Assembly: GCA_964187785.1 (NCBI GenBank)
Contig: OZ076409.1
Span: forward strand, 27,406,001 to 27,470,000
Direction of reading: 5' to 3'
Origin: Amphiscolops sp. MND2022
Lineage: Eukaryota
DNA: 64,000 bases
Position numbers and translations under genes: made by a program
Notes under the pieces: generated by a model
The model's input: the letters and a program-made list of their open reading frames with translations, nothing else
The model's database searches: none
Told to the model about the DNA's origin: nothing
Part shown: positions 4,387 to 36,411 of the stretch, piece after piece
Position numbering within the stretch: position 1 is the first letter of the stretch
How the letters are laid out: each line of letters opens with the position of its first letter

Positions 4387-4435
4387 ATGTACATAGAGTA
4401 CATTTGTTATAGACTGTAAACTGATTTGTATTTAT

Positions 4436-10849: not shown

Positions 10850-12535
10850 GGATCAGTCTTTTTGGTATTGGATTGGCTTGAATTAGTAGCCACCGAGTCA
10901 CTGGTTGTTTTAGGATTTCCCTCAGAAGTTGAGGCATTTGCGTTTTTTTGTTCTGTCTGTGGCCTCTTGGGAAGCAGGTGAGCGCCAGCGCCTTGCCAAC
11001 ATCTTTCAGTTGAATGATTCTTTTTCCCGCATGTGTCGCATGGTGGGTAAGTTGGACGCTGCGGTTTCTTGCCATCTTTCTCATCCATCTCTTTCTTCTT
11101 TTTGAGTTTAAGACAGCTTTTGTAGTGATGTCCCGTCGCCTTACAATAGGAGCACTGGGCGTCTCTGTTGATATTGATGCCGTTAGACAGCAAATTGCTC
11201 TGATTCGTGGACGCCGAGGCCATGGTGGCCATTGGCAAGTCACTGACTCTTCTAATGCTTTGAGTTCTAGTCCTCTCTCGAGATGAGCAACTATTTCTTC
11301 GTACGTTCCGTTTTCCAATCGGGCCATGTTGACAGATCGATTTAGTTTTGGTGGCAGTTTCGCGTATAGCAAGCAGTCAATCATGCTTTTTGCATTATCA
11401 CCAAAGGCTTTTTCGGCCCCTTGGTTCAATTTTTCCAAGAAGTCCGGCAATTTCATGGTACTTGGGTCGAATGTCAGTCGATGCCATTCGTGTTTTGCCG
11501 TTGCTTGGGATTCCGGTTTCAAGTACTTTCTCCGGAATATGACCAGTACGTCATATAGAGTCTGACGATTGATGGAATTTATGTTCCTGAACGTCTGTAA
11601 TGCCCCTTTTCGTAGCAATGAATGGAAATGATTGGTTTTCATCTGCTCTGTCATTGCGGGTTGCATTTTGATCATCGTGTGGAACAAGTCCTCGAAAAAC
11701 TCAAACTTTTCGCTTTTCCCATCGAATGTCATTGGCGTTGTTTGGACTGGTCTAATGGTCTAATGGTCATGGATTGAGGTTTGTTTTGTAAATTGACCAA
11801 TACATCAGCTAATCTGTTGAGCGGGTCCTGTGAAAGCTCATGGACCTCGGGGTCTGGGGCTGGCAGAGTCGCGTCCAGAGAGACATTGTGTTTAGATTGT
11901 TGCCTCTCCAGGTTTGGGATTGAGTGGATTCGTCCAGTCAGAAATTCAGGAATTTGCTGTTGGGTGTCAATGGCTCCTGTCACCATGTAAGGACTACAAC
12001 CTTTAGTGTCCCTCAACTCTCCTACGGACCTTGAGTCCTTTTTAGCGATCTTCGTTTTTTGCCCAGATGCGTTTTCCCTGTTTTCCTTACTATTAGGGGA
12101 CATACTGTCCTCAGTGTCCCTGTGACCTGCAGACGACCCTGAATATGCTATATTTTGAATCTCCGGGATGACTCTTTCAGCTATAGCTATGGTAATAGCG
12201 CTGTTTATCTGACTATGCCTCATGGACATCATTGAGTCCATTTCTTGGGACAGCCTAAGATTGAATTCATTTGAAAGAGCCTCAAACGACTGTCTAACAT
12301 CGTTTTGCCTCTTAGAGTCATTTTCATTTGAGAAATAACCGTACTCCTTTCTATGGTACGTATTTGTATTTGCGTCCCCGTGGACCGATGATTGCTCTAT
12401 AGCGTCAGCTAATTCTCTTTCAATGGGATTGTTATTATCATTTCCCAACATTACGTCTAAGTTATCGTAGTCAGACATCATGTCCATTTCTCTAGATTTC
12501 ATGGCTTTTGCCTTTTGTTTTCTTGTTGGAGGCAT
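10840..12535 (-). pseudogene. gag: gag of element A, frameshifted, starting inside the 5' LTR
   Basis: ORFs 11729-12535, 10815-11732 and 10840-11238. Knuckles CSYCKATGHHYKSC and CDTCGKKNHSTERC. Ends at AAAAAAC TAA. Confidence 0.9.
11974..11985 (-). promoter_or_regulatory. Primer-binding site of element A (TGGTGACAGGAG)
   Basis: Directly follows the LTR-terminal CA. The same 12-mer follows the 5' LTR of element B. Confidence 0.85.
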
Positions 12536-13494
12536 AAGAGATTGTTACAAGATAAAGATGTAAATTATCTTTGGCTTGGAAATTTAGTGTGATATTACTA
12601 AGCGATAAGTAACTTCAACATGTAGTATCATTCAACAATTTTGTCCCCGGGACTAAATGTCCCGGCTATATATATTAGAAACTACATGACATTCAAAATA
12701 TGAGTTGTCATATTCTAAAAATAGCCTTAAGGGCTTTCTAAAAATAGCAACAGTTCTAAAAATAGCAACGGGTAACTAGTGACATCATCATGATGTGTGT
12801 GACTTCAAAGAGTTTTCCCGACAGACAACGTGTTGGCGGGAAGCCCGTGTGTATACTAGACATATTAACAGCATACATATACTAAAGCAGAATACATGCG
12901 TTTCAACATTTTACATGAGGTTTATCAATAGCACGCTACATTTCGTTAATATGCGGTCTTTTGACACTAAGTGTCCATTTTATGAGAATATAAAGGCCTT
13001 TCCAAGTTCCAAGTAAGTGTACTTGTCATTTAGCACCTTTAATTCAAAACTGGACTCAGCGTCCAATCGACATGGTAGTCCTAATTTTATTTGTTGACAG
13101 GCGGCATATGGCCGTCTAGTCCATTGATCAAAGCGCCGCATAAAGTATTAAATAAGAGCACTGGTTAATTAACTACTGCACTCTGATTGGTTGAAGCTCA
13201 TTCGGACTTGCTGTCGAAGGCGACAGGCGAGGAATCATTTAAACACGTTTCCTCTACCTGTACGCCTTGGTGTCCAATTTACTAGCAACGTACAATTAGC
13301 GCCGGTATTACATAACACTAAATCATAACTTTAAATGATATTTTACATTCAAAATAAATGAATTACATGACTTCTAAAGTATGAATGCAGTTTAGTTTAG
13401 GAGTTTCAATTTAAAGGGATTGTGCTGGGTAGGGCTTTTCGATAGTCATGGCAAATAGAATACATGTTGCCATCACAGGCGGACGCCTGGGACA
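11986..13494 (-). repeat. 5' LTR of element A (about 1509 bp)
   Basis: Minus strand TGTCCCAGGC...CCTTACA. The inner end is set by the PBS and the outer end by similarity to the TSD-bounded solo-LTR end at 55209. TATA-like run near 12667-12675. The partner LTR is not in the window. Confidence 0.75.
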
Positions 13495-14185
13495 GTGGGT
13501 AAGGGGTTCCACAGTTGAAAAGTTTGTTGTACAGGTTTGTTTTTCAAAAAATTGTAGTTATTCTTTTTGGAAGTCTTCAGTCGATCATTAAGTTGATGTT
13601 GTTGCTGAGATAGTTCGGAGCGTCTCGCAATAATTAAAACGTTAACTGAAATATTTTCTTCCTGAAAACAGATTCTTACAAAAGAATAGTATTGTATTTC
13701 AGGTACGCAAAATTCTTCAAAATATCCACCTCAAAAAAATTTTCAAGAAGCACTTCAAGAATGGGGAAATAAAAAAGGACAATTACTCTAATATAAGCGG
13801 CACACACTATGAATTGAAATCAAAAAGGTAAATGCTTAGGAAAAATGACGTTATTCCACATTTTTTCCTCAAGTTTAACTTTCTCAGATGAAGTCCTTTT
13901 TGGCTGAACGCATGGAAAAAATGGGAAACAGAAACTACCTAGAGATGGCTTTTCGACCCATACAGTATCGATGGCAAAGCAAACTCAGAATATACTGCAA
14001 TTTGAAAACTTTGTCGCAGTTTTGTTTTATGATGCTATATACTTCTTACATATCATGTTACATGATTGTTTTATATGATATTATATGAATGTTAAAGTTC
14101 TGATTTCCTCTCAGACTTGTGGTGAGAACAGAAGTGCACTCTCTGAATCAGTTTCGATCTTTTGACAACTTCTGACCGTGATCAA

Positions 14186-14475
14186 TCATGCTGAGTTGGG
14201 AACAATGAGAGGAATTTTGTTGTTGTAAGACCCCGTTTCGAGTCTAGCAAAGTGGTAGAAGTTTTGGCCCTGACACTGCGCATTTTTGTACATGTTTCTG
14301 TAGTAGTACTGTCTTCCAGCTGCTGAAGACTGTGTCGTAGTTTCCGCCGTTTCTTGTTCAAAGTTGACCAAGTACTTGTTCCAGTCGACTGGAATGTAGA
14401 ACTTGCTGCTCTGGATATTGAGCTTGCAACTCGCGTAGTAGCCAGCAAAGTCGCAAGGCTCTTGCAGAGCCATAT
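14186..14475 (-). CDS. Probable host coding exon (Cys/Tyr-rich, unknown product)
   Basis: GC-richer 95-aa ORF in AT-rich DNA, preceded by a TTTCATTATAG acceptor (phase 1). No transposon motif. Confidence 0.45.
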
Positions 14476-14629
14476 CTATAATGAAATATAATTAAATTTA
14501 GAAATAATGAAAATCGTAAGAGAAAGCAACAGATTTAAAAGCATAATACAATATTTCGATAGTTGGTTGATTTTGATGTGTCAAAATGGGGAATCACGTC
14601 ATTATGCATATTACGTGATAGCGATATTA

Positions 14630-16450
14630 GCTGATCGATATTATAGCAAATTGAAACTTAAACTAAACAAGACGCCCGCTGAGCAGCGAGATATTTTCCG
14701 CCCCAAACTGTTCTACAACTACATAAATTTGAAGCTTAAGAAAAGCCAATGCTCTATAAAAACGCAAAGAAGTTCGCATAAAAGAAAATTTTGATTAATT
14801 TTAGCCCATTTTTAAAGGAAACACCTAATTTATTATTTCTGCGATAGCTGGCCACTTTCCTTTTTTCTGCACTAAGCGACTTGCCGAGAACAGAGAAAGT
14901 TTTCGTAACTTTTTTCTCAAACAATTTTCGGAAAACAATTTTCGAAATTTTTAGTTTTTGAGGTTTTCTGTAAAAGAAGAAAGTTGCCCGAGTCTTAAGG
15001 GTGACTTATTTGTTACTTTTGATCATATGGAACTGATGAGTTTTCTTATTCATAGTGCAAAATACCTCATTTCAGTTTTTTCGTCTCTGTGCGTCTTTCG
15101 GAAACTTTCATTTGGTCAAAGTGTAACACCTTGCTTCTTTAGTTGATTTCGGCTTGCTTGAGAAAAGTTTTGCCAGCTGAAAGTCATAGGACTTTACCAA
15201 ATATTCAAAAAATTGAAAATTTTTGTTGATTCCTGTTGGGGAAAAAGTGTTCTCCGACGCTCAGGCGTATTTTTCGGGGCAATTTTTGGCCCTGAGAAAA
15301 TAGGAAAAGCTTGAAACTGGTTTTTTTGCAAGTTTAGGAAACTTGACGGGCCCTGTTTGTTATATTATTGCACATAGTTTCATCAGAAGTGTCAAAATTT
15401 GGTAATAATTTTGACAATTTTGGGGGTAAAGTTGAGGAACTTTTGTCAAAAATCTGAAAAAATACATAAAGAATTTGAAAATTGAAAAATTTTGGGCTTT
15501 TTGTCATTTTCTATGCTGTTTTGGGACATTTTTCGTTCAAAAACTGCAATTATCTTTTCATAAAAGACTAATGGACAACCAACCCTTTCACTTGTTCACA
15601 CTCTCAAACATTCCATAACGCGAAGTTTGTGGATACATTAACAAAAATGCATAAAATCTTTGAAAAGTGAAAAATTTTGGTTCTTTTGTGGCTTTCGGTG
15701 TCATTTTGAGACAATTTTCAATAAAAAACTGCGTTTATCTCTTCATAAGAGACTACTACACAACGACGTTGATGAAGGTTTTCAACATTCAAATCCACTG
15801 TCGAAATTTTGACCGAAGTTGCAGAAAAATCTTGAAAAATGGAAAATTTTCGGTTTTGTCTTTTTCGCTGTCAATTTGAGATTTTTTTGAATTGGAAAAC
15901 AACTATTACTATTAGCTCTCCAGAAAAGCCTACTGGACAACAAATTCGTGCCATGTTGAGCGTTTTCAACATTTTAATCCACGAAGTATATCGAAAATTT
16001 GACAAAAATTGCATAAAAACATTGAATATCAGTGAATTTTGGACTTTTTGTCATTTTTGGGGTCACTTTTCTTCGAGAAAACCGCATTTATCTCTTAAAT
16101 TAAGAAAGTTGGACAGCGAATCCGTGCCTTGTTGAATGGTTTTAACATTTTAATCCGGCAAAATTATCGGAATTTCAACAAAAGCTGCAGGAAAACGTTA
16201 AAACTGGGATGTTTTTGAAATTTTGCTATTTTCGGGGTCATTTTTGGGTCATTCTGGGGTCCTTGAGGGTCAACCAAAAAAGTCCAGAAATCTGCACAAA
16301 TACTAATCACTTGAAGCTGAGTTTATGCGAGTTGAATTCTATGGGCAAAACCATGAAGGTAAGTATAAATATGGTGCTTGGGAAATTTTGTAGAAAAAAC
16401 GTTCGATTTAAATATTTTCCTTTCCCATATGAAATAAGGGCGGAAAAAAT
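14630..16450 (+). repeat. AT-rich dispersed repeat with degenerate ~180-bp internal units, unclassified
   Basis: Units recur near 15480, 15670, 15840, 16030 and 16210. Segments 14650-14750 and 16390-16445 match the reverse complement of 61060-61150 and 58415-58470. Boundaries approximate. Confidence 0.65.
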
Positions 16451-16509
16451 GAAATTAGGAGAAATTTGAATTATAGCAGCGCTGAAACAGAAAATTCGCA
16501 AATAGAGAT

Positions 16510-17441
16510 TGGCAGAACGAGTCACGTTCGTGTTAATAACGGTGTTGAGACCGCTACATTCGGTCGTCGGTGTTGATATTTTCTCGGTAAGGGCTAACAC
16601 AATGTTTGTTAATTCGCTGATTTTTTTATTCATCTCCATAAAACGTTGATCAACGGAATTTGAGCTAGAATTTTGTCTAACATTGATTAAATCTCCATTC
16701 TCGAATTCATTCATCTGGTTTCTAGATAATGTGTTAGGAAAACTATATTCGCTTTCGTTGTCACTATTCTGTTCCATTCCGCTGGAACATGCAGCATAAC
16801 TATCTACGTTTTGAGATCTGGTATTGACCATCTTTGAATCTTCGAAAGGAATTGTTGCTTTTGAAGGTTTATTGATTTTAATAGGAAATATGAATAATCA
16901 AGTTTCGACTAAATCAATGAGGTAAGCAACACTACGTTAGGCTGTGTAAAACTTCGTACTGCTGATACTTCAACTCTTGTCGCAAATTTCACTGCAGTTG
17001 GTCACGTGACCGCATTGGCCAATAGTATTGCGCTATTGATTAGGTGTTAATTGGTGCGTCCTGCTGGTAGCAACGTAAATGGTGTTTTGTACAAAAGGTA
17101 GCACCAATATGTTACCATGGTTACATGAATCATCTATCATTTGCGTTGGTTGATACAAATTGCGTCTATGATGGTGCACTACCAACGTTATATATGATAC
17201 TACATTTTACTGATGAAATTAAATATGGTGAAAGCTCTTGTACGAAGCGTGTAATGAGTAAATGATGTCAACGTTTACAATTCGTTTTTTATTTTAGGAA
17301 GTAATAATAATGATGGGATAGGCCCGTCATTGTTCAATGGTAATTTATGGTTATTGAAATATCAAGAGTATTATATTTAACTGAGTTTTTTAAATGTTTA
17401 GATTGTTTTTTATCAGTTTCATTCATGCTTCCGGCATGACA
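16510..17441 (-). repeat. 3' LTR of element B
   Basis: Direct repeat of 31237-32168 at offset 14727. One terminal substitution (TGGCA for TGTCA at 16510). Confidence 0.97.
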
Positions 17442-17453
17442 CTCCCCCTCTTT
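17442..17453 (-). promoter_or_regulatory. Polypurine tract of element B (AAAGAGGGGGAG)
   Basis: Purine run on the minus strand abutting the TGTCA start of the 3' LTR. Confidence 0.92.
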
Positions 17454-18475: not shown

Positions 18476-21400
18476 ATGTTATCCCCCGAGTTGTCTGAAG
18501 AAGAAGTTGCATCGATTGTGATAGCCGCGGAAGGCGCGCTAGCTGAGATGTCAAATTTGGAGCAATTATCAGATGAAGAAGGTTTCCAAGCCTCAGTTGA
18601 TACGTTGTTGGAAGGAGAGACGCCATCTGTGTGCTGCCAGTTTGCTCAGCGTGTGACTTCGTCTAATGTAGAGGCTGCTACTACTTTGTTGGAGATAGCT
18701 CTCTCCAGTGAATTCCGTAAGTAAATCCGTAGTTATCGTTTTTCCTTCTTCTGGCTACTGAGACGGTCTTTCAACGTGTTTGTTGTTGTGTGCTTTGTAG
18801 TTAGGGCTAAACTCGTCAAGGTAATTGAAATGTTTGTTGCATTGGTATTTGTGTACTGTAGTTACCAACGTCTTGACTAAAAGGACTTCCCGGGAACTAT
18901 TACCTTGGGTAGACTTCTGGGCATTGCTCATGGTACTCATAGGTTAGATTGTACCATGTATGTTGCAGAATCTTTGAGTCTGACCGATATCGTCGCCGCT
19001 CTACGACGAATGCTTCAACAGAATGAGCCTCCAGTATATGCATCTCCCGCGAGTGCCGTCGAGACTGGGCTCCGGAATTATGTATACAGCCAAACTGGTA
19101 AGTCTGTTCGCTAACTGGTTCGTTATTGTAACGATGGTGTTATATGATCGTTACTGATCCGTACGGCGTGTCGGTTGTTTATGGTTGGCTTCGAGATGCA
19201 CTCTCGTTTACACGATGTGTAGTACTCTGCGTTGTTATCTTTTGGGTGGGATGTTTCCAGGTACAGCGTTGGGTGACTTGTTAACTCTAGACGACGTCGT
19301 TGCTGCTATCGCTCGACTGCAAAAGGAGATGTCCGGCGTGGTTAAGGCCACCATCGAATCCACTCTTGGTCAGCTCGGGACAGTTGGGGCAATGGCTGTG
19401 GATGAGTTTGTTGGTCAACTGACTGCAGCAGTTTCCCGTTTAGTCCCTGCTAGTGGCTTGAAAGCAACCGTGCCTGGGGAGGATGCCCCCCTCATCTCGT
19501 CATCATCATCTGTGGGTGTTGCGCCAGTTGAAGGTGATGCTCAAAAAGACTTGTCGGTCGTAAGCCGGACGGCATCGATGGTTCCTTCCATTTTTGGAGA
19601 GGGAACCGTAGCAGGATCCTCCAGTGCAGGGAAAGTGGCTGCTGCTAAACCTGGTAAGAATCTCAAAAAGATCATGGGCGGGGTTTTAGTGAACAATAAT
19701 GTTAAGATTATCAAGAGACAAGACTAGATATATATGTTTTTTTTTGTTTTTGTTTTTTTTGTGTATATGTATATGGGACTATTTAACGCGTTGTGTGTTT
19801 GCGTTCTAGCTCGTGCTCGGAAGATCAAGACGCTCAAGCCGTCTTACTTTGTTTCTGGCGTCGTGGGGACCTTCGTTGGGTTCCCCCAGAACAAGCGGGT
19901 GATTGACGGTTACGCTCGATGTTTACTTTGTCGTGTGGATTTGAGAATTGCAGGACGTGGTCTGTCGTCGTTATGGGATCACTGGAAAGGAGTTGAACAC
20001 ACCCGATTGGAGCAAAAGTACAGGATTATGACACACAGGCCATTGCTGGACAAGTCTTGCAGACTAGTATCTGCAGAAGAAGATGCTCGTCTGACCGAAC
20101 CGCCGGTCTTTCTAGAGTCTGCGCTGAAGTTAACTGTGGAGGAGCGAATAGCTATTGAGGAGGCAGAGGCTGAAGAAGGCGCGCGTCCCCAATTGCAGGA
20201 CGAAAGTGTGAATTACTTGTGGCTGAGTAATTTCGTCTCAAGTTTTCTGACTGTGACGTCCTTTGATGGGGTGCTCCGGGCATTGGACTCATGGAGGGAC
20301 TGTATGGCCAACGAACTTCGTTTTGAGTGCCGTACTCTGACCTACTCTCGTTGTCAGGTAAAATCAAGTTTTGCAGTCAATATTAAGTTGTACTGGCTAC
20401 TTAGGTAACTTGCTAGTCACGTGGTTGTTATCGGTGCATTGTAACGCTTTTCGGGTACGGGTGTTGTGTTTGCCTAAGTTTTTTGGTAATTTTATCAATT
20501 TGTTTGATTCTGTTTAGAGTCTTGTGCTGTATGGCTTATACCAGTATGCAATTGAGCAGTTGGTCGCACTGGTTGCAGCAAGCTCTTGCATCGGTGTTTG
20601 CATCCGTCAGTGCCATTGGCGGTGGTGTGGTGAGCTTCACATCGTTGGCGCCCATGGCATAACTTCAGTGGTCTTGGCGCTTGTTTCCGGTGGAACTGGG
20701 TGGGAGAAGCGGCTGTTGAACAACGTCATCCCAGTTCTTGCGTGTCTCAAAGACAGAACTCAATTGAAGACGATTGCGGTGGAAGGTGACGTACATGTTG
20801 GGCGGGCGTTGGCTAAGAGGTTTCGCCTAAGACTCTTCTCGTGGTGGGGTTGATTACGCAGCGGTCAGTGTTCAACGAGGTAGAAAAACAGTTTCTCGCA
20901 GAGTTCGCGGGTCTAGATCCTCTCAGTGTCCTGGAATACTTTCGTGTGAGGCTGATGTCCGTTGCTCAAGAGGGTTTCTTAGACCGTTTGCCGTTATTGC
21001 AGCGGGTTAGTAAAAAAACCCCTTTTTTTGTTTTTTCTTTTTTTTTGTATGTGGGTCATGGCATTTGCGTAGGTTTTCGATTGTTTGGCTCTGGTGAAAA
21101 GGTAGATCGTGTTCTTGTTTTGTAGTATATTCGACTTGGTGGAGATGACGTGTCCCAACTTGCACTGGTTTGCGCAGAAGTGGTGGACTATTGGAATGAT
21201 TTGGCGCTGTACTTTGGTACTCATAGACCGGGAGTGACGTCGGAACTGCGTCCGATTACTCCACTAGAAAGTCAGGTGTTCGAGGATGCACTGATTCGGC
21301 CTCGTTTTGCTGTTCTGCGCTTAGTGCTAGATTTGAGTGAGTATGGGTTTGTATGCTGTTGATCGGATACTCATTTGAGTACACGTGTAGCTGTAATTTT

Positions 21401-22861
21401 GTATGTTGAATATGGTCCAAAATTAGGTTAAGTGGGGACGTATGGAGCTAAAGTTTCGCGTGTACAGTTTGGTGTGTAACCCATTGGTGTTGTGTTTTAG
21501 TGGTTAAGCACTGCCCTAGTTTGTGTGGACGTGGACGCGATTATGGAATTGTCTCGGAACGGGAACTGGCTCACCTTTTGCGTGGACTAATGAAGTTTAT
21601 CTATCCGGCTCACAGTATTCCAGCGGAGTACGATATCGCTGCCTTGTTGAAAAATGTGGACCGGGAGTATGCCGACGTAGACTCTAACATGTACAGATTA
21701 CATTTCGGGCAGTACTTCCGTTTTGACATCAGCACTCAACTGCCTTTCTTTTACAAATCTGTCCAGAAAATGTTAGTCGGTATATGTCGTGGATTGAGCG
21801 AATTGTGGCAGCGTACGTGGCCCCAGCATTTGAGCTTGACTCCATTTGATCCGGTTCTCATTCATAGTGGGTCGGATGATCGCTGTGTCGACTCCTTAGT
21901 AGCAACTTGTGCTGTGTTGACTGCTCATGGGCTTGTGGGACTAGATGATGGCGGAGTAGTTCAGCAACAATATCGCGAAGTCACCCAATTTTTCAAGAGA
22001 CGCTGGGCCTCTACTGCGGAAGAACTACCAGTAGTGGAGGACATTTTCGCGTTGTGGATGTCGTATCCTCACTGGGAGCGATGCGAACAATTGCGGCAGG
22101 TCATCGATCTGGCTTTCAGTGCAGTGGCCACTAGTTCGTACCGGGCGGATTTTGTGGATGACGTCGGCGGAGCTTTGGATCCTGATGAACTGGCTTCAAG
22201 TGTGCATTTCGTCCGGAGTTGGTTCAGTGAGTCTTTTGTGGGGAAATCGCGTCGTCAACTACGTGGTTTGTTGCGTGTCATTGAGACAACTGACATGCAA
22301 GTGTCTCGCTTAAACGATAGCGTTCGCGCTAAACCGTGGGATCAACTCCTCAAAGTTGGACTGGATCAAACGTTGTCCTTGTGTGTATCCGTGTTGGACA
22401 ATGGTCCTGATACTGCAGTCGTTCCGGTGGTGGATGAGTATCGTTCGACAGTACTTGCGCAGTTGAACGTTATGGCGGTAATGGCAACGAGCCCTACCCG
22501 TGTAGCGACGGATTCTAAAGCGATGCCATCCAGTACAGACGCGAAATCCAAACGGCCCCGCAGTCAGTCTGATGTAAAGTTGAAGACTCCCAAGAGGACG
22601 CCTAACGTGGCTACGGTTGGAACCTCTAAATCTACTGGGCGAACGAGAGGCGTTGTGGTCAGTCGACGAGGTCATAGTGCAGCGGTGAAGTCTGGAAAAG
22701 GACGGCGAACTGGCGAGAAACCGCATGCATCTAAGAGACTTGTATTATCTACGGCGGCAAGTGAGGCTTCAGATCATGGTAGTCAATCGTCCAGTGACGA
22801 TGTGCCACTGTCTACCACTAAGCGGACGAAGCAGGTCATCCGTGATTCGCCGGATGAATAG
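18476..22861 (+). CDS. Antisense multi-exon cargo gene of element B, hAT-transposase-like (at least one frameshift near 20840)
   Basis: Frame-preserving GT-AG introns 19098-19260, 19654-19809, 20358-20517, 21006-21125 and 21337-21500. The first intron (donor about 18717) is unresolved. Finger ARCLLCRVDLRIAGRGLSSLWDHWKGVEH; 453-aa last exon with a basic tail. Confidence 0.75.
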
Positions 22862-25012: not shown

Positions 25013-28000
25013 TTAGTCGGTGGATTTGTCTTGCATGAATTTTAGCAGAGCCAGTTTGACTCGGAGTTCGTGAACTAAGAAGTTTTGGTAGGTTTTCGGT
25101 TGCGGTTCGGTTCGGAAGTTGTACCGTGTTGCGTTGTTACGCGACGTTGTGTGGTCATGCTCATTATGAACTGTCGTTGTATGTTCAGTCACAGGTTCGT
25201 TTGTTTCAGTATCAGGTTCGTTGTTGGTGTCGTAATGAACAACTGAATTGTCAGGCGGTTGTTCGCAGGTTTCAGGTGAGCTCTCAGGAATTGGTTGCGT
25301 CAGCGTATGATCGCTCAATTTCCGTACATGCTCATAATAGATAATGCCGTGTTCATTATTGATTTCTTCTTGATCGGTTGTTTCCGGTGCCGGTTCTGCA
25401 TACAAATGCTGAGGCATGTGGTCATTGAAGAGCGCTTGATCATCGGCCGCATCTGGGTCAGCGAACAAGCGATTTGAGTCTTCTTCAATGTCCGGTATTG
25501 GTGCGTTCGGTGTGAAAGGACGTAGTCGCATCCTATGCACGCACTGTGTTTGGAAGGTTCCGACCTTCCTGATTGTGTAGTTAAAGTTTGTCAGTACTTT
25601 AATTACTTTGAAGGGACCTTCCCATTTGAAATCATGGAAGTTAATCTTGTCGGACTGCGTTGTGAGTTTAGGATTAAGCAGAAATGTGTAGTCGTTGACC
25701 TTCAAGGGTAACGCTTGGGCTTTACGGTCGTAGTACTTTTTGTACTTGTGGTATGCTTGCAGTATGTTATCATTGACTTGTTGGTATTTGCCGTTCACCT
25801 GGTCAACTAATCTTGTTATGTCAGTTTCCGTGGTTTCACATTTCAGAGGGTTACCGAATTTGAGGTCTAACGCGTTAAACGGAACTCTGCCGTGGAAGAC
25901 TTCGCTCGGAGTGCACTTGAGTGATTGATGGTAGGTTGTGTTATGAGCCATTACTGCAAGATTAACGTACCTGTCCCATTGGGGGGAGTCGACAGAAATG
26001 TTAATCTTCAGAATTTGTTTCAGTCTTTGGTGGGAACGCTCCACCATCCCTATGGTTTGGGCATGCTTTACAGTAGCGTGATCGATTTTGATTCCGGCAG
26101 TTTTCATGATTTCGGTCATGATGTTGGATGTGAAAGCCGTGCCTTTGTCGGTGATAATTGTCTTCGGGACGTAGGCGTGTTGGGTGAATACTTGCATGAG
26201 CGCTTTTACAACCGAGTTAGTGTCTGGTTTCCGTATAGGTACAGCGAACAAATACCGTGAGAAGTAGTCGCACGCCGTCAGGATGTGCGTATATCCGTTT
26301 GAGTTAGGTAGTTCACCTACTAAATCGATTTCCAGTACGTCTTCCGGGCCGTTACAGGGGTCGTAGATTTTTTCCAGAGGAGGCATTAGTCGTCTTGGGT
26401 TAACAGGTTTTGCTTTGATGCACTCAATACAATTACTTACGTACTTTGACACGTGTTCACTCAGGCTTGGTATGTAGTAACGCTTACCGAGTTCTACCAA
26501 CATTTTTGATGCCCCAGGGTGTCCCTGCATGGGGTCGCCATGCATTGTCCTGATTATGGGCATGGTAGTTTCTGGAGGTACTACGATTTGTTTAAGTAGA
26601 ATTCCGCCAGTGTTATCAAAAAAGTTCCTGTACAGTACCTTGTTGACTACTTCAAGTCTTTTTTTGTTTTTTACCAGTTTTTGAAAAAAGGAGCTAGTAA
26701 AGTTAACGTGGTTTGGTAGTGGTTCGTTGTCCACTAAAACGCGGACCATTTTTTGGACGTCTTGGTTACCTAACTGATCTTGGACGATTTGTTAATCCCC
26801 TTGCGGGCATATCTGATTTACCGGGTTAAGGTGGTGACGTCTGGTAAACCTCGTCAGTATGATGGAAGGGGTGTCTCCTGCCAGAACAGGTTCGAGGTGT
26901 CGGCTGATGATCTGAATCATCTTGAGACGTTCGTCTTCATGTGTTTGAAGGTTGTTCGCCATTGAGTTTAGTAGAGTCCGCATCTTGGTGAAGTCGTCTG
27001 CTGGACCGGTGGTTTCAGACTGGTGTGTAGTGGGTATCGCTGCATCGGGTTGTTGTTGAACTGGGTCGTAGTCTTCTTCGTCCTCGTCCTGTTTTGGGGT
27101 TTTGGCCGCAAGATCTATTTCGATGTCGTGGACTGGAATCTGGTCATTCAATTTCAAGTGAATTCTGTCTTCAGGGTTAATGTCTAATCGAAACAGGTAA
27201 TCCACCGCTGGGTTCTCGACTCCAGGGACGTGGGCGAGAACAAAGTCAAATTGAAGTGCTTGGTCACAATGGTTCCATAGTTTGAGTGGTATTCGTTTTG
27301 ACTGGAAGAAGCGGGTCAGAGCCTTGTTATCTGTCATCACAATTGTGGGTTTTTTGACACCCCACAGTATGTGAGCAAATTCGTCGAAGGCGAAGTGCAT
27401 TGCGAGGAATTCTTTAGCATACATGGTCAATGACATTTGACCTTCCGTGAATCGTTGTGAGCCGAATGCTACAGGGGCGTACGTCTTCTTCTGTCCATCA
27501 ATGGCTTCGGTGTAGTCCTCAATGAGGAGCACGTACCCTGCTGCGTGTTCACTCGCATCGCACATGATGACCAGTTGTTTGTCTGGTAGTGGTAGTCGCA
27601 GAGATAGTTTTGCAGCTCGTGCCAGGTTCTGATTAATATCAAAAATTGCGTCCTTGTGAACCTGCGTCAGGGTGAACTTGATGTCTTTCTGTAGTAGTTT
27701 GTACAGAGGAACAAGTTTTTCTGCCAACATCGGTATGTACTGTCTGTAGAATTGTACGAATCCGATGTAGCGTTGTAGTGATTTGACTGACGTTGGTGTT
27801 TTCACGTTGTTGAGGAATTTGTCGATCTTGTCCTTAAGTGGCGCAATCCCTTTGGTAGTGATGCTTCTACCTAAGAACTCGATCTTCGGGTGACCAAAGG
27901 CGCATTTTGACATCGACAGCTTTAGACCTGCCTACTGAATCTGCTGGAAAACTGCTTCGATGTTAATTATCAGTTCGTCCACATTGTTGGCAGCGATCCC

Positions 28001-29981
28001 AATGTCGTCGACGTATTGGGCACATTTGTCTGCTTTTACCAGTGCATCTAAGTACTCTCGAATTGTACTGTTGAATGCAGACAAAGACCTATTCAACCCT
28101 TGCGCGTTGCGCTGCCAAAAAGGTTCTGCTGCCAAAATTGAATGCCAGAAGTTGTATTGATTGTTCGTCGGCCATTTGGAGGCAGTGGTAAGCTTGCGAA
28201 CAGTCAAGCTTGCAAAAGTACCTTTTGGCAGCCATATGCTGGGCTGCATCGGCAATGGTCGTTACTGGGTGGTTGTGGTTGTTGTAGTCATTTTTGAGGA
28301 GGTGGTTGATCCGCCTCAAATCGACTAGTATCCGAAGTTTCCCGTTAGGTTTTCGTTGTGCGAAAATTGGGGAGGAATATTTACTGTATGGTAACGTCGT
28401 GATGATCCCGTACTCCTGCATCAGTGCGAGTTCGACCAGCAGATCATCTTTCAGATTGGTTGGAGTAGGTAGACTCTGGGCGTACACGGGATCATCGTGT
28501 TTTGGGGTCAGCTTGATCTTGAAATCGGTGTTGATGCCGATATCAAGACGATGTCTAGCAAATATCGTGTGATATTTGACGAGCAGTTCTTCGATCCTCT
28601 GTTGCTCGTGCTCAGTGAGGATCGAGTCGTCCCAGCTGAAATTTTTGAGGAATGTTTGGCGTTGTTCGTCATCGCATGTCGGGTTGAGTTTTTCAGCTTC
28701 TCGGAGTTTGATGAGTTCGTCGTAGATACGTCTTTCTATTTTATTCAACTTGTCAGGATCGTCACATATTTCGGGCGTCGGGTACCATCTTTTATCATTT
28801 GTGGCGCTTGGATCCTGGAACAGTTGGTTGATCACATTAGCCGCTTCATCAGGGAGTTTAGTGATCAACGCCAGCTGCTCGTTGGTCATTGGCTGGATGT
28901 TTCTGGCTTGGTTTGGCGTAAGTATTCGGAAGACTGCGATTGTACTGCTCTGAGGTATTGTAACTGCGTGGTCCATGTGGTTGGTAATTTGGACGTGTGT
29001 CTGTTGGTCCTTGATTTCAGACATTGATGGTGACACTAGCAATTCAGTTTTTCGTTCAAAGGCTGGGAACGCCTCTATTGTGCCTGTCACTATTCCGATG
29101 TCCTTGTCCGTTGTAACAGTCACAAATATTTGTTGTCCGGGCGAGATGGTTGTTTTTTGGGTTGTTCTGAGTTCCAACATCTGCAGTTTGAATTTCCCGT
29201 TTGGCGGTTTTAGTTGGAGGGTTATTTCTGGGAATCGTACAATGTTATTTGCAAGATCTAGCGTGACAGAGTATTTTTTAAAGAAGGACATTCCGATGAG
29301 GATGTTTCCCATTGTTGGTAGGATCATGAATGTCTCTTCGAATATTTTTCCCCCAATGAAAAATCGAAGAAGCACTTGTTTTCTCACCGGAACGATATTT
29401 CCGTTGCCTATTTGGACTTTGAAGTCCGGTGCTGGATATTCTTCCAACTGGGCTGCTGGGTGGGCTTGTAAGATTCGACGTAGCTCGTTTTCAGACATCG
29501 CGCTCTGGATTGCTCCAGTGTCCAGGAGCCCTTGATTTTCATACTCACGGAATTGAAGAGGGACGTAGAGCATCTTGTTTCTTCTGTCTAACTGGAGTGT
29601 AGCGCTTAATGGTCTGATGTTTGTTGGCTTCGGTTGGTGCCCCTGTTTGGTATTGTCATCCAGTTCATTCGGTTTTTGTTGTGGGTTTCTAGTTCTGGTC
29701 GGGTTGACCCTCTCGCGTTGGTGTGGCCTGGCTGCAGTCTCTTTCGGAATGCAGCCCTTCGTTGTACAATTGGGGTTGTCGTCTATGAGAGGGAGTATGT
29801 GGTAGTTATTTGTCGAGACTTTGCGTACATAGTATTTTGTTGATAGTTTAGTCTGTTTATCAGGACGCTGCCAACATCCTGTCGTTGTAGTTTTCGAGTA
29901 GTAGTGAGTTGGAGTTGTTTTTTTGGTGCGCGCACTTTCTGTTTGGTTGGACTGAGGATGACGTGGCATTACAAGTTTTTT
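25013..29981 (-). pseudogene. pol: pol of element B (PR, RT, RNase H, IN) with a few lesions
   Basis: LLDTGA, LDCSQAY, YVDD, CDAS, HHCC, EIDLVG/ITDKG/MVER, WEGPF. Frameshift near 28120, TAG at 27932, frameshift near 26780. Confidence 0.95.
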
Positions 29982-31558
29982 GAATTCGTATCGTATTCAT
30001 CGTTGTAGTCCATGTCGTAGCAGTCGTTGGTTTCTTCTGGTTGGGTGGTCTGGCTTGTCGGTTGCGTGACTTGGTAGGTTGGTTGGTTGTTGTTTTGTGA
30101 CTGTTTGAATTCACGGAGGAACTCTCGGTTTTCATTGGTGGATTGTTTGTCATATGGTACGTTTCGGTAAGCCGATGCTCCTGGTACCCTGTCTCTGCAA
30201 TCCCGTGCTGAATGTCCGATCCTGCCACAAATTTGGCATACTAATTTGGAGTTGTATCGTGGTTTTTCGGTTTCTTGTTGTTGGGCATTGTTGTTTCCAG
30301 GTTGGGGACGTTGTTGTGATTTCTTCGTTATTCCGTTGGCTTCGTCCCTGAGGCGTTTACGGCATTCAATCCACTTGTGGCCTAGTATGTTGCAGTATCT
30401 GCAATTTCCTTCGAATCTTCGTTTGACTTCTCTTGTTGGGTTCTTCTCGGTGTTGTTTGGGTTGTGGGCTGGCTGAGCGTTGTTTTGCTTTGGTTGGTAG
30501 TTGTAGACCTGGTTAAGTGGCTGCATATCCGAGGTGCCGGGGAGCAGTTGTGCATATTGGCAACGGCGTTGTACAAACGTCTTGATTTCTTCAACCTTGG
30601 CATCGTGTTTGCCTGCCATGGCAAGTTCATTCTGAATCTGGATTGGTAGTTTGGCAAACAAGAATGTTTCGGCTATGTCATTGGCTTTATCTCCGTATGC
30701 TTGTTTGGCAAGTTTCTTGTATCTAGTTAAGAAATCAGCAAATGATTCCTTTGTGGGGTCATACCTCATCTGATCGAATTTGTACTTCGATACTTCTTTG
30801 AGGTCTTCTTTCGCATACTCCTTGGTGAAAGCTTGCAGGACGTCTTGGAGTGTCGTTTCTGTCGTGATTTTTAGTGTTTGCCAGAATTCTATGGCTTCGT
30901 CTCTAAGCAGGCTTTGAAAATAGTTTAGCTTCTGCTCTTCTGTTAATTTGTTCATGTGTGGGCGGAGGTGGTTCTTCAGTAGGTGTTCGAATTCGTTGTA
31001 CTTCTCTCGGTTTCCGCGGAAGAGAGGTACTTGAGTTTGGAGGATTTTGGGCTGTATTACTCCGTCGGTCATTGTTGTTCGTAGGTTGTGTATTTCGGTC
31101 AATACATCATCCATCTGAGGGTCATTGGTGGGTGGTGCACGATCTCTGTTTTGGTGAGTTGCAGGGTTTGGGAGGGTCCTGCGTGGTTGTTGGATATTTG
31201 GAGTCGGATTTGGGTTCGTGGAGACTCCTGTCACCATGTCAGAACGAGTCACGTTCGTGTTAATAACGGTGTTGAGACCGCTACATTCGGTCGTCGGTGT
31301 TGATATTTTCTCGGTAAGGGCTAACACAATGTTTGTTAATTCGCTGATTTGTTTATTCATCTCCATAAAACGTTGATCAACGGAATTTGAGCTAGAATTT
31401 TGTCTAACATTGATTAAATCTCCATTCTCGAATTCATTCACCTGGTTTCTAGATAATGTGTTAGGAAAACTATATTCGCTTTCGTTGTCACTATTCTGTT
31501 CCATTCCGCTGGAACATGCAGCATAACTATCTACGTTTTGAGATCTGGTATTGACCAT
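29969..31558 (-). CDS. gag: Gag of element B (529 aa, intact), starting inside the 5' LTR
   Basis: Open ORF with knuckles CRYCNILGHKWIEC and CQICGRIGHSARDC; capsid region similar to gag of A. Confidence 0.95.
   Translation of the reverse strand: MVNTRSQNVDSYAACSSGMEQNSDNESEYSFPNTLSRNQVNEFENGDLINVRQNSSSNSVDQRFMEMNKQISELTNIVLALTEKISTPTTECSGLNTVINTNVTRSDMVTGVSTNPNPTPNIQQPRRTLPNPATHQNRDRAPPTNDPQMDDVLTEIHNLRTTMTDGVIQPKILQTQVPLFRGNREKYNEFEHLLKNHLRPHMNKLTEEQKLNYFQSLLRDEAIEFWQTLKITTETTLQDVLQAFTKEYAKEDLKEVSKYKFDQMRYDPTKESFADFLTRYKKLAKQAYGDKANDIAETFLFAKLPIQIQNELAMAGKHDAKVEEIKTFVQRRCQYAQLLPGTSDMQPLNQVYNYQPKQNNAQPAHNPNNTEKNPTREVKRRFEGNCRYCNILGHKWIECRKRLRDEANGITKKSQQRPQPGNNNAQQQETEKPRYNSKLVCQICGRIGHSARDCRDRVPGASAYRNVPYDKQSTNENREFLREFKQSQNNNQPTYQVTQPTSQTTQPEETNDCYDMDYNDEYDTNSKNL
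29975..29981 (-). promoter_or_regulatory. -1 ribosomal frameshift heptamer A AAA AAC (gag-pol)
   Basis: X XXY YYZ heptamer just before the gag stop, with pol in the -1 frame. Same heptamer at 10843-10849 in A. Confidence 0.8.
31225..31236 (-). promoter_or_regulatory. Primer-binding site of element B (TGGTGACAGGAG)
   Basis: Directly follows the LTR end TGACA and is complementary to a tRNA CCA end. tRNA identity not established (Leu is a guess). Confidence 0.88.
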
Positions 31559-32168
31559 CTTTGAATCTTCGAATGGAATTGTTGTTTTTGAAGGTTTATT
31601 GATTTTAATAGGAAATATGAATAATCAAGTTTCGACTAAATCAATGAGGTAAGCAACACTACGTTAGGCCATGTAAAACTTCGTACTGCTGATACTTCAA
31701 CTCTTGTCGCAAATTTCACTGCAGTTGGTCACGTGACCGCATTGGCCAATAGTATTGCGCTATTGATTAGGTGTTAATTGGTGCGTCCTGCTGGTAGCAA
31801 CGTAAATGGTGTTTTGTACAAAAGGTAGCACCAATATGTTACCATGGTTACATGAATCATCTATCATTTGCGTTGGTTGATACAAATTGCGTCTATGATG
31901 GTGCACTACCAACGTTATATATGATACTACATTTTACTGATGAAATTAAATATGGTGAAAGCACTTGTACGAAGCGTGTAATGAGTAAATGATGTCAACG
32001 TTTACAATTCGTTTTTTATTTTAGGAAGTAATAATAATGATGGGATAGGCCCGTCATTGTTCAATGGTAATTTATGGTTATTGAAATATCAAGAGTATTA
32101 TATTTAACTGAGATTTTTAAATGTTTAGATTGTTTTTTATCAGTTTCATTCATGCTTCCGGCATGACA
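31237..32168 (-). repeat. 5' LTR of element B
   Basis: TGTCA...TGACA termini; about 99% identical to 16510-17441. Confidence 0.97.
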
Positions 32169-33154
32169 GAGATTGAATTCAATAACAAAAATTCAATAAT
32201 TAAATATTTAAACGCAACGGCAAATTAGTCCTATACTCCTCCAGTAATGAAAAACAATTTTCCCATTGTTCTCCAAAGCTTTTCCCATTTTTTTAATTTT
32301 CAAAATAAAATGCTTGTTTTTCTGCGTTGCGGTGGTGCTTCACTTGTTCAATCCTTCCGAAATTTACGTTTTGGTTACCTTTTTTAATTTCAAAGTCGTT
32401 GAATCTCCCCACAGATTTCGGTATTTTTTTCAGATGACTTTTCCAATTCGAGTTCCATTCCTCACAAAAGTTTGTTGTTCTAGCAATCCAATCTCTTCGG
32501 TAGACAATCCAATTTTGAATGGGAACGCCTCAGAATCATTGATTCTCGACTTATTCGAAGATTTATCAAAAGTGCAAAAAGTTTGGTAACCAAATCCGGG
32601 GGCAGAAAAGAAAGAGCTAATATTTTTCTCACCATTTTTGGAGGCTGTTATTGGTTTTATATTGAATGATCAAACCAAGATTTTGAATTTTGTGATATAT
32701 GCACTGCGTGTAATGAAAATAGGATCTCAATTGATCATTATTTAGTATGTGAATTCTGACAGATGAGAAAATATCCGTTTTAAAATACGAAACATTTTTC
32801 TCGAGACAAAAGTCTTCGTAAAATTTTTGAACAGATTAGCACGTGAAGTCAGAGACATAATGTTACAATAATGTTCCGTTTTCCACCGAGAGAAGCACAT
32901 ACCATTACCCCTGAAGTCACCGTCAATTTTGACGCCTCGGATAGCTCTGGGAACGGGGCAGTAACTTCGTTTGGAGTTTACGCACAGACGGTTTTGTAGC
33001 ATGGTATATCGGAATCAGAAGTTGATCATAAAAATCGTCGAGCTTTTCCGTAGATTTATTTTCCTCCGATTGCAAAACTTTTTCTCGGAATCGGGCTTGT
33101 TCTCTTTTTTGCTTAGGATCATCATGGGGATGCTCAGACATTAGAGGGTTATTT

Positions 33155-33330
33155 ACAAATGTAAGTGCTCGAGATTCAGAAGGTTAAGTAGCGAAAGCAC
33201 GAATTCTTTCATATTCATTTTTAAAAAATCAAACATACAGTATACAGTATGTTTGATTTTCAAAAATTGAATTTATAAGAATTCGTGCTTTCGCTACTTA
33301 ACCTTCCTAATCCCGAGCCCTTACGTTTGT
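33155..33330. repeat. Imperfect palindrome, ~86-bp arms, centred on TATA 33241-33244
   Basis: For example GAAGGTTAAGTAGCGAAAGCACGAATTCTT is mirrored by AAGAATTCGTGCTTTCGCTACTTAACCTTC. Confidence 0.92.
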
Positions 33331-33370
33331 GATTTCTCACTTTCTCAATTTTTGTCTCAGAAATTTTAAA

Positions 33371-33622
33371 AAAGTATCAATGCAAACTAGATGAAATTCT
33401 AAGAAACATTTAATTCTGATGTTTTTCAAAATTTCCAACCGATTTCGAGAAAATCGAGCCTAAAATCGCCTGGGGGACGTTTTTTTAATCACAGTATACT
33501 GTGATTAAGAAAACATCCCCCGGGCGATTTTAGGCTCGATTTTTTCGAAATTGGTTGGAAATTTTGAAAAACATAAGAAATAAAAGTTTCTTAGAATTTC
33601 ATCTAGTTTACATTAGTACTTT
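33371..33622. repeat. Imperfect palindrome, ~124-bp arms, centred on TATA 33495-33498
   Basis: TTAATCACAG-TATA-CTGTGATTAA axis with long mirrored arms. Confidence 0.92.
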
Positions 33623-33891
33623 CTACAAATAGCTGATTTTGAGCAAAATTGGGAGTTTTTGCTGTTTTTCAACTTTTTGACCTTTTTATATCCAGTTTTT
33701 TTTGACCACTTTTCTTTTCAATTACCTTCCACAAAAATACTGAATTCATGGATATATTTTGATTTCAAAGGGTAAAATTTCCTCAATTTACTTGAATTTC
33801 ACTCGATGCGCCAATCAAAATCGAAAGTGAGAGCAAATAAACAATTTTAATTGGCTGAGAATGTCACAGGGGGACGATTTCTTAATCACAG
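33499..33891. mobile_element. TA-flanked MITE (393 bp), possibly Tc1/mariner-related
   Basis: TIRs CTGTGATTAAGAAAACATCCCC / GGGGACGATTTCTTAATCACAG with TA on both sides. Confidence 0.7.
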
Positions 33892-35339
33892 TACTGTACT
33901 CTGTACCAAAGTAGAAGCAGTAATTATAGTTTTTGATAAATTTTTGGCTTTAAAAAACCACCGAGGCCACTTACGCATGGCTGCAACGATGGTTGGATTG
34001 CCCTCCTGCCAGTATCGGACTTCAGAGAAGGAGTCGTCAAGTACATCCACGTTGACCAAGCAATCGTGGACTTCGATTCGCATTTTGGAATATCGCTTGT
34101 CTCCCGCACCTCCATAGTAGACATATCCGCTCATGTCAAAGTAGGTCTGGAAGGTGTCAAATCCAGGAGGTTTGAAGCAGAATACGTCCAGAATCCTGTT
34201 GCGAATTTTGATTTGACGACTACCACCTGCAACAAAAATGAAAACGTTTCTCGGTCCAAAATGAGAAAAGAAAGTTTCATTGATATCAAAGGATTTCCAT
34301 GTCATCGTTAAAAGTTGAAAATATGATGAAAGAGGAGTTGGAAATGGAAGTGTGTGTTCAGTCAGTCATCGAATGAAACATTCACCAACATACAATACCT
34401 TGTTTATAATAAATTAACGATAATTTAGCAAAGTAGTCTGGTTGAAAAAGTCCCATTGGACATCATAGCGAGTTGCCAGATTTCATTTTCAGATGATAAG
34501 TCTCTCAGAAATTGATTCGTTTTGTTGCATGGTTTAACCGAAAACAAACTTACTCCACCAAATGACATCCTATGCAACAGAACTTGTGATTGTTTGATTC
34601 GTACACTGAAACGTGACCAACGTTAACCAAGATTGCTCAAGATCATGGAAACGGAATGCCGAAACAAATATCACGAAAGCAACACCAATTTAAACTTGAA
34701 GCGCAGTTTCGGAGGATTATTTAAGCTACTCAATTCTGTTAGCAGGGCATTGGATACAGTTCAAGGTGCTAACATTCCCTTGTTCGATGCAGTCCTGATT
34801 TTCCACTGATGTCTCGAGTTTGTTGGACAACGCAAAAATGAATTCGATTCATTGACACGAATAAAAAAGCTCACGCTTTTGCATTTGTTAAGCTTATATT
34901 TGGACCCTCGATATCGCTCTGGGAAGATACTATCGTCTACTGATATTGAAGAGGCAAAGGAATTAGCAAAGAGCTGAACGTAGAATTGGTAGGAGTTATC
35001 ATGAAATTTCGACTTGTGAGCGAACCATTTTCAGCGGCCTTTTTGAGAAAACTGTTTCCGCGGTCGTTCTCACTGACTGTGAGGAAAATGACAAGCAGAT
35101 TATCCCAAAAATTACGTCGGGTAAGACAAGAACAGCTGAACTGGAGCAATTATTCCGCACATTTGGATTTGTCCATTCCGGTTCCGGAAATCGACAGGGA
35201 ATTTAAAAATGTGGAAAACTCGACTTTGGAATCAATAATTATCAATTTGAATCATTGATAATTGATTCTTGAACAAAGGATTGTTTGAAAAAATAAAAAA
35301 TATTTAAATCGGACAAAAATAATAAAAATTGGATTCAAA

Positions 35340-35996
35340 TCAAATAGAAATACTGTCGTAACCGTTTTCATCATCATTTAGATTAGATTCCATAAAATTC
35401 TCTCTACGGCGATTTATTCGGTTACTTTTCATCGATACTAACCTTGGAAAGTCGTTTTCAGCGTCCCCAGATGTATAGCTGACATTTTCAAGGTGCAGTC
35501 TATTTGACTGAAGGTCCTTCCGGGGGTGCGCCTGATTAGAATTACTCGGATGCGGTCCATCTGACCGAAGGTCCAAATTTGTAATTTTAGCAGAATTCTG
35601 TCTCTCTTTAACTGCATTTTTAATACTGAGAAGCAATTTCGTTTCAATTGCAGCGTTGATAACGTCTAATATCTGAGAGTTTAAGTTAGTTTGCACCTCC
35701 CCAAACCTTTTAGACATTTGTGACGAACTGATAGCTCTACTAGTTTCCACAGTTATTCCACTATTCTCGCTGACATTTGCATTTAAATAAGACCTATAGT
35801 CATTTTCATTTCGGTTCAAGCTATTCTCTCTCCTATTTGACTCAAGATCGATTTCATTCTCACTTGCTCTATCTTGTGCTTCGCTGTTATCCCTTTGATA
35901 ACTTCCTAGCATAACATCAAGATTCTCAATATCTGACATCACGTCAGACTGACAGGAGCGCTTCTCTTTCGCTTTCTGCTTTCTAGTTGAAGGCAT
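35340..35996 (-). CDS. LTR-encoded Gag N-terminal ORF running just out of the solo LTR
   Basis: MPSTRKQKAKEKRSCQSDVMSDIENLDVMLG aligns with MPPTRKQKAKAMKSREMDMMSDYDNLDVMLG of A. TATATAAA upstream at about 36115-36122. Confidence 0.7.
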   Translation of the reverse strand: MPSTRKQKAKEKRSCQSDVMSDIENLDVMLGSYQRDNSEAQDRASENEIDLESNRRENSLNRNENDYRSYLNANVSENSGITVETSRAISSSQMSKRFGEVQTNLNSQILDVINAAIETKLLLSIKNAVKERQNSAKITNLDLRSDGPHPSNSNQAHPRKDLQSNRLHLENVSYTSGDAENDFPRLVSMKSNRINRRRENFMESNLNDDENGYDSISI

Positions 35997-36411
35997 TGCA
36001 ATGAAATTTAGTGTTTCAACAGTGAATTTACTTAATTGCAAGATCAAATCAAAGAAGTCGTGTATTGTATTTCATCAATATCAACAATGAATCCTTTTAA
36101 CAACGGACTCCTAGTTTATATAGTTGTAGGACCATGACAACCATTATTTGGGGCGTCAAAGTCTGAAAAAATTCATGACGTCATATTTACTATAAACAAC
36201 CAAAGGTAGACCTGACGTCATATTACGTCACTAACTATAAATCGGAATGGAACAGGTTAGGCTATCTAATGAACAACACTGATGACTACATGTACGTGAT
36301 CCTACATCACGTCAAAACTATACAAATTAACAGTCAAACTGCCTGAAAGGGCATGGTGACCTAGCATCAAAGTGACTGCACTAGTCATCCTGAATAGTAC
36401 CGTTTGTCAAA

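Follow-up and report, generated by a model that had tools for sequence, protein, structure and literature searches.

A gag reading frame that likely begins inside the long terminal repeat and crosses a tRNA-Leu-matched primer-binding site in Ty3/gypsy-type elements of Amphiscolops sp. MND2022

Can the gag gene of a retrotransposon begin inside its long terminal repeat (LTR), and does the ATG formed where the LTR meets the primer-binding site (PBS) start a second protein? The question is raised by three related LTR units (element A, element B, and a solo LTR, all on the minus strand) in a 64,000-nucleotide (nt) stretch of the Amphiscolops sp. MND2022 genome (GenBank assembly GCA_964187785.1, contig OZ076409.1, positions 27,406,001 to 27,470,000 of the forward strand; hereafter the window). 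Here, we report, with high confidence, that these are Ty3/gypsy-type elements whose LTR carries 100-220 conserved codons in the gag frame, that translation likely yields one long Gag, running from the LTR ATG across the tRNA-Leu site, and that the junction ATG is most likely a by-product. Coordinates are window positions; G000:C denotes contigs of the 1.07-Gb genome (the window is on C1), and L numbers denote sampled loci.

LTR ends were set by target-site duplications before ATG-to-end distances were measured. Element B is a full element of 15.7 kb with TG...CA ends, the duplication ATCTC, and two 932-nt LTRs differing at 9 positions. The 3' LTR of element A lies just beyond the window edge (L024; 94% identical to the 5' LTR; duplication CCCAC), and the third unit is a true solo LTR with the duplication GTATT. 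The features at the LTR ends and junctions are:

11986..13494, minus strand: element A 5' LTR, 1,509 nt, TGTCC...TTACA, target-site duplication CCCAC
11986..12535, minus strand: LTR-coded N-terminal part of A Gag, ATG 12535 to LTR end, 550 nt (183 codons + 1 nt)
11974..11985, minus strand: A PBS, 12 nt complementary to the host tRNA-Leu 3' end, giving MVTG with the LTR's last A
11729..12535, minus strand: A gag, first open piece of a broken copy, 268 codons, open across the junction; remainder of gag in other frames
31237..32168, minus strand: element B 5' LTR, 932 nt, TGTCA...TGACA, target-site duplication ATCTC
31237..31558, minus strand: LTR-coded N-terminal part of B Gag, ATG 31558 to LTR end, 322 nt (107 codons + 1 nt)
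31224..31236, minus strand: B PBS, 13 nt complementary to tRNA-Leu, abutting the LTR's CA
29969..31558, minus strand: B gag, 529 codons open across the junction (LTR-coded part, MVTG linker, capsid-like helical domain, two CCHC knuckles)
16510..17441, minus strand: element B 3' LTR; the frame copy from ATG 16831 continues into the flank, 174 codons in total
35354..36408, minus strand: solo LTR, downstream part; ATG 35996 to LTR end, 643 nt (214 codons + 1 nt), with a stop 4 codons into the flank (218 codons)
54803..55209, minus strand: solo LTR, upstream part, split from the downstream part by nested element C; GTATT on both outer sides

The ATG-to-LTR-end distances (550, 322, and 643 nt) are 3n+1 in all three units. 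CA followed directly by TGGTGACAGGAG encodes MVTG in A and B, and relatives of the solo LTR that retain an interior (L044, L047, L048, and L053) carry the identical junction. Exact matches to the string TGGTGACAGGA number two in the window, one per junction; taken by themselves, two matches at 1 mismatch do not exceed chance (28 of 100 shuffles). The original prediction had read the same three codon counts in a single phase, and MVTG from the terminal A plus the PBS in A and B; both readings stand with ends taken from target-site duplications.

The layout is lineage-wide. The exact junction CATGGTGACAGGAG was found 7,527 times in the genome, versus once for the reversed control. In a sample of the first 90 listed junctions, all on C1 and falling into 41 groups at 80% and 18 groups at 70% DNA identity, at least 100 codons were open 5' of the junction ATG in its own frame in 68 and in either other frame in none (median open codons in the three frames, 132, 10, and 5); the LTR frame, whose conservation across copies had been in question, is conserved. 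Open Gags from the sample (n = 22) have 103-216 residues followed by an invariant MVTG, a capsid region, and two CCHC knuckles, and most are 22-26% identical to B. Of 266 database relatives, 92 have at least 90 residues before MVTG, 20 have fewer, 15 start at MVTG, and 139, many of them fragments, are without it; many of the ENA matches are probably from the same or a close species. Metagenome contig L209 has the same junction 129 codons into an open gag, its nearest counterpart here being 70% identical over the capsid region only; the locus holds a single LTR, so the LTR limits are unconfirmed there. A pattern search for junctions with a spacer between CA and PBS gave 20 matches, 14 of which were ordinary zero-spacer junctions reached via an earlier CA; junctions of the spaced kind are thus nearly absent, and the search turned up no family with a spacer.

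The LTR-coded part is under purifying selection. The pooled pairwise ratio of replacement to silent substitution rates (dN/dS), proposed as a check in the original prediction, lay between 0.15 and 0.39 for the LTR part in every one of the seven families; internal gag gave 0.04-0.16, and the 300 nt preceding the LTR ATG gave 0.60-0.90. All values are non-independent and drawn from open-frame copies only, and two copies in the A set had a wrong internal start. The upstream 300 nt had no clear codon-position bias. A DNA-only test in B avoids these caveats: among 19 copies of the coded part, those changes shared by at least 2 copies comprised 22 silent and 7 replacement changes, and those private to one copy comprised 9 silent changes and 41 that altered the residue or made a stop (Fisher p 6e-7; silent fraction expected under neutrality, 0.198). 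Shared changes thus have a silent excess and private ones are neutral; therefore, selection acts in the replicating lineage and ends after insertion. No shared indels were found in the coded part among the 19 B copies, and in the solo-LTR family all three shared indels were multiples of 3. Of 49 copies whose downstream gag is open, just 3 have a broken LTR part, which does not exceed the expectation from random decay. In 6 of 7 families, internal gag had diverged less at silent sites than the LTR-coded part; a more rapid turnover of LTRs, or recombination among subfamilies, may be the cause.

The sequence 5' of the LTR ATG has the character of a leader. Over 62 copies, ATG density in the last 100 nt before the LTR ATG was 0.08 and 0.0 per 50 nt, versus about 1.4 elsewhere, and CAT, used as a control, was not depleted; such a loss of ATGs is as expected of a scanned leader. 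Judged from sequence by pooled dN/dS, the shared/private test, and this ATG-poor leader, the LTR-coded part is coding. A TATA-like motif was present at -165 to -110 from the LTR ATG in 30 of the 62 copies. AATAAA 5' of the B start codon was kept in 12 of 12 close B copies scored and is not common to most other families; in the B group and in a further subfamily, AATAAA or ATTAAA is positioned near -41. The candidate signals in the window are:

12668..12674, minus strand: A TATA-like box, predicted promoter, 139 nt 5' of the A start codon
36116-36122, minus strand: solo LTR TATA-like box
31595..31600, minus strand: B AATAAA, candidate poly(A) signal, 42 nt 5' of the B start codon

The PBS pairs with tRNA-Leu over 12-13 nt, which supplies the match to a host tRNA 3' end that had been sought. 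The tRNA 3' pattern complementary to the PBS had 833 genomic matches (a large host tRNA family), mostly on one strand, and ARAGORN identified 3 of 8 pattern loci as tRNA-Leu genes (anticodons CAG, CAG, and AAG). The tRNA complement extends to 18 nt in 74 of 7,527 junctions; of 30 such junctions examined, most end at 18-19 nt, and several extend further, some with a substitution at position 19. Such ends and substitutions fit a reverse transcriptase that halts or misreads at the methylated A58 of mature, CCA-bearing tRNA, and they are good evidence for tRNA-Leu as the primer. Of 31 junctions with a tRNA copy (the 30 examined and L011), 7 resume in sampled gag, with the frame kept in 4 and shifted in 3; frame-shifting copies are the one visible cost of a coding PBS, and about 1% of junctions are touched.

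Several loci bear on tRNA copying in their own right. At L161, L164, L167, L175, L178, L179, L184, L187, and L188, the LTR end is followed by 22-47 nt or more of reverse-transcribed tRNA-Leu, in some cases substituted at the A58 position, as in fossil read-through products of plus-strand synthesis; in most, the sequence beyond the tRNA copy matches no sampled gag start. At L183 (G000:C5), the sequence passes from an 18-nt tRNA copy back to a point immediately 5' of the LTR start codon. Seven 18-nt junctions lie about 1.9-2.2 kb apart, tandem-array-like, at G000:C11:50420529-50432957, and a dense tandem cluster of tRNA-Leu-like 3' ends with a spacing of about 300 nt occupies G000:C8:35587798-35641273 and beyond. 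Extended pairing with the tRNA T-arm (CGAACC 3' of the PBS in B) was considered and rejected, as families differ freely in the six bases that follow the PBS.

Predicted B Gag was modeled with a mean predicted local distance difference test (pLDDT) score of 56. Its LTR part contains one predicted helix (residues 48-86; pLDDT 87-88 at 61-80), the rest being low-confidence or disordered; MVTG falls in an unstructured linker, and a capsid-like helical domain at about 184-338 weakly matches human immunodeficiency virus (HIV) CA and the capsid of Arc (the best match had E 0.009 and a probability of 0.99, and no match had E<=0.001). B Gag has zf-CCHC above the Pfam cut-off, and the LTR-coded Gag parts had nothing above cut-off in Pfam. 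Residues 1-125 of B Gag gave only unnamed matches in the ESM Atlas (<0.9), and a two-copy complex prediction of residues 40-100 scored 0.04, which gives no answer either way. Pfam matches in the B pol pieces follow the order protease, reverse transcriptase (RT), RNase H, integrase, and the A pieces are consistent with this. The best PDB match of the B RT/RNase H piece was Ty3 (E 5e-14), with foamy virus next. Direct LTRs with TG...CA and a short duplication, this pol order, a CCHC Gag, a tRNA-matched PBS, and a polypurine tract are all present, and integrase does not precede RT as it does in Ty1/copia. By these sequence characters, the elements are classed as gypsy-type, though not of canonical Metaviridae layout.

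The frame conserved across families with only 22-25% identity in Gag and the purifying selection on it bear out the proposal that gag begins in the LTR and crosses the PBS, and the long Gag is well supported. Besides the limits on dN/dS given above, several observations weigh against it. The case for the long Gag is drawn from DNA sequence throughout. The reverse complement of the TATA motif occurs in the same interval in 20 of 62 copies, so the orientation signal is weak, and family B is without a TATA-like motif near the start; therefore, the transcription start site is a prediction. No poly(A) signal position that would delimit R and U5 is common to all families. An ATG lies at most 90 nt upstream of the LTR start in 4 of 62 copies, including window A. 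In family A, the coded part has two shared deletions of 1 nt (3/19 and 2/19 copies), which may mark duplicated dead copies or a propagated lineage. A purine at -3 is more frequent at the junction ATG (47/62) than at the LTR ATG (32/62), making the former a usable start if a ribosome arrived.

The junction ATG exists because the LTR-terminal CA abuts the TGG that pairs with the CCA of the tRNA. The three phases of the junction read TW-stop, HGDR, and MVTG; as one is a stop, a gag crossing the junction has two options, and among the sampled junctions no family in the H-G-D phase was found. In the MVTG phase, the C of the terminal CA is a third codon base at which T would be silent, and it is kept in 7,527 of 7,703 junctions. 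The CA is held even at this silent position, and therefore the LTR end is kept by integration, not translation.

It is quite unlikely that two isoforms are made, the long Gag and a short Gag initiated at the junction ATG through an internal transcript, internal entry, or leaky scanning, the latter perhaps regulating assembly as Ty1 p22 does. All coding families sampled are in the ATG phase and none in the open H-G-D phase, but a single ancestral phase (prior odds 1 in 2) explains that uniformity. Usually, position -3 of the junction ATG is a purine and position +4 a G, and both the capsid and the knuckle domains are encoded entirely 3' of it. The 50 nt before it contain few in-frame ATGs (0.04 per copy), but out-of-frame ATGs are undepleted there (0.81 per copy). 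An ATG lies no more than 90 nt before the junction ATG in 54 of 62 copies. The median distance to the nearest preceding ATG is 50 nt, as against 171 nt at the LTR ATG, and the median number of ATGs between the two starts is 9. The retention of CA at a silent position counts against a short isoform as well, and copies with only the downstream frame are not in excess (the 3 of 49 above). In the accessible text of two sources on Ty1, an internal transcript yields an N-truncated Gag (PMC4599808, PMC8458377), and p22/p18 are the model for a short Gag from an internal AUG, a restriction factor made by internal initiation. Unlike in Ty1, no internal leader or start-site signature (an ATG-free stretch) precedes the junction ATG in the 62 copies. 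The short, junction-initiated isoform of the original prediction is accordingly not upheld, its ATG being forced by CA plus TGG and preceded by no ATG-free leader.

It is very improbable that translation of the LTR frame mainly takes place at 3' and solo LTRs and gives a peptide that is free-standing or fused to host sequence, with selection on that product equal to that on full Gag. Every LTR copy would bring a predicted promoter, leader, and frame, and in the window the frame runs for 174 codons from the B 3' LTR and 218 from the solo LTR. Private changes are nevertheless neutral (9 silent versus 41), and so selection does not act on inserted LTRs; the LTR frame lacks its own stop and always keeps the phase of gag, and the conserved AATAAA 5' of the ATG in family B would end 3' transcripts before that ATG. 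That the LTR frame is a non-coding by-product of A-rich composition, or a relic, with Gag starting only at the junction ATG, would agree with the LTR part having no Pfam match above cut-off, with its mostly low-confidence structure model, and with the 15 of 266 database relatives annotated as starting at MVTG, but it is largely refuted, and almost certainly wrong, given the silent-site excess in shared changes, the frame-keeping indels, the ATG-free leader, the single open phase, and the 92 of 266 relatives with at least 90 residues before MVTG.

Under the preferred reading of one long Gag, families with a TATA-like box would have their transcription start some 90-130 nt 5' of the LTR ATG, and scanning ribosomes would initiate at that ATG. 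Often made up of a basic tip, a single long predicted helix, and flexible linkers, the LTR-coded part would form a matrix-like or oligomerising N-terminus of Gag, and priming would follow later, inside the particle. MVTG itself would be set by nucleic-acid needs rather than by the protein, with integrase holding the CA and the tRNA re-templating the PBS each cycle. The phase would be locked because LTR indels 3' of the ATG must keep the frame, because one alternative phase is a stop, and because the other open phase would need compensating shifts on both sides of the PBS.

The closest known layout is that of Ty1 of Saccharomyces cerevisiae, in which, as here, GAG begins in the 5' LTR and the PBS is in coding sequence, a likeness and not a membership; the original prediction makes no mention of this precedent. 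As given in the accessible text of the sources, the Ty1 AUG follows a 53-nt untranslated region, and the PBS occupies RNA nt 95-104 (DNA from position 335, directly after the 334-bp LTR) in GAG (PMC5454406), inside GAG's open reading frame (PMC4974528). Silent PBS substitutions preserving the GAG protein are described there, and Ty1 transposes with this arrangement (PMC5454406, PMC4974528), priming being described as inside the particle. On those texts, the conflict between translation and priming is therefore not new, and PBS translation is already known. The LTR share in Ty1, on the same texts, is 41 nt (13 codons + 2 nt) in the other open phase, versus 103-223 codons + 1 nt in these elements. 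Ty1 uses initiator tRNA-Met and has the copia domain order; the elements reported here have tRNA-Leu and the order protease-RT-RNase H-integrase. What is new relative to Ty1 is the length of the LTR-coded part and the Ty3/gypsy context. The mouse mammary tumour virus sag and HIV nef genes also have coding sequence within the LTR; they overlap it in U3 and are accessory genes expressed from the 3' LTR on spliced RNA, whereas the elements reported here encode the beginning of their structural polyprotein in the downstream end of the 5' LTR.

Canonical Metaviridae (Ty3/gypsy) share with these elements the LTRs, PBS, polypurine tract, gag with capsid and nucleocapsid, and a protease-RT-RNase H-integrase pol. 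The Metaviridae profile by the virus-taxonomy committee ICTV gives non-coding LTRs, a U5 of 75-250 nt, and an 18-nt PBS (PMC7879559); in these elements, by contrast, coding sequence takes up the final 310-670 nt of the LTR, and PBS pairing spans 12-13 nt, reaching 18 nt in only the 74 junctions noted above. A literature search returned no report of a long coding LTR in gypsy elements, most subscription journals and the Repbase and GyDB entries lying outside its coverage. The PBS string was absent from the supplements of PMC13524379, and the accessible part of PMC7175516 has nothing on coding LTRs. In endogenous retroviruses, the PBS lies in the 5' untranslated region and tRNA 3' fragments bring about silencing, for which seed pairing is important, according to the accessible text of PMC7472051; a short PBS in coding sequence might blunt such silencing.

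The remaining features of element B are:

17442..17453, minus strand: B polypurine tract, adjoining the 3' LTR
25013..29996, minus strand: B pol, a broken copy in several open pieces, with the Ty3/gypsy order protease, RT, RNase H, integrase

At the end of B gag, an A-AAA-AAC run (29969-29996, minus strand), which has the form of a -1 frameshift site, overlaps pol, and the gag of many families ends K-N. Long open frames on the opposite strand lie between pol and the 3' LTR in B (19158-22861, plus strand) and A (277-4266, plus strand); neither had a Pfam match above cut-off. Element A also contains a 1.18-kb tandem duplication (4426-6790; 98% identical) of the integrase C-terminal region. The element nested in the solo LTR (36409-54802, minus strand) is an 18.4-kb decayed LTR element with LTRs of about 280 nt (94% identical) and strong GC skew. 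It contains integrase domains, and one of its pieces matches a fusion glycoprotein of the Monjiviricetes type (PF24664, E 1e-11), so that it appears to carry an envelope-like gene; no TGG was seen after its 5' LTR and no clean target duplication at its ends. Elsewhere in the genome, L076, L077, L079, L093, and L134 have the same PBS with only short frames on both sides and are probably non-autonomous derivatives or decayed copies, and four related gag matches at a 14.47-kb period (G000:C12:14837368-14881035) are apparently whole elements arrayed head to tail.

Although LTRs are described as non-coding, one fifth to over one third of a Gag can be LTR-coded and held by selection across a radiation that counts at least 7,527 junctions in a single 1.07-Gb genome. 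Annotation that strips LTRs starts these Gags at the junction Met and loses the N-terminal domain, and 15 of 266 database relatives begin there. The implied first DNA product would be about 430-760 nt if the predicted start sites are right. The primer site is at once codons, a neighbour of the integrase-held end, and a tRNA-templated sequence, and the tRNA-converted junctions are a natural record of the effects of re-templating on a coding PBS. With each solo LTR, the host genome retains a coding start that is open-ended. More speculatively, and in our view unlikely, the LTR would be a self-contained gene start (promoter, clean leader, and 100-220 selected codons), such that 3' and solo LTRs would express the N-terminal domain of Gag alone or fused to host sequence, acting in trans on assembly as a mirror of Ty1 p22 and seeding chimeric host genes, while the 12-13-nt PBS in translated sequence would shield the elements from silencing by 3'-tRNA fragments.

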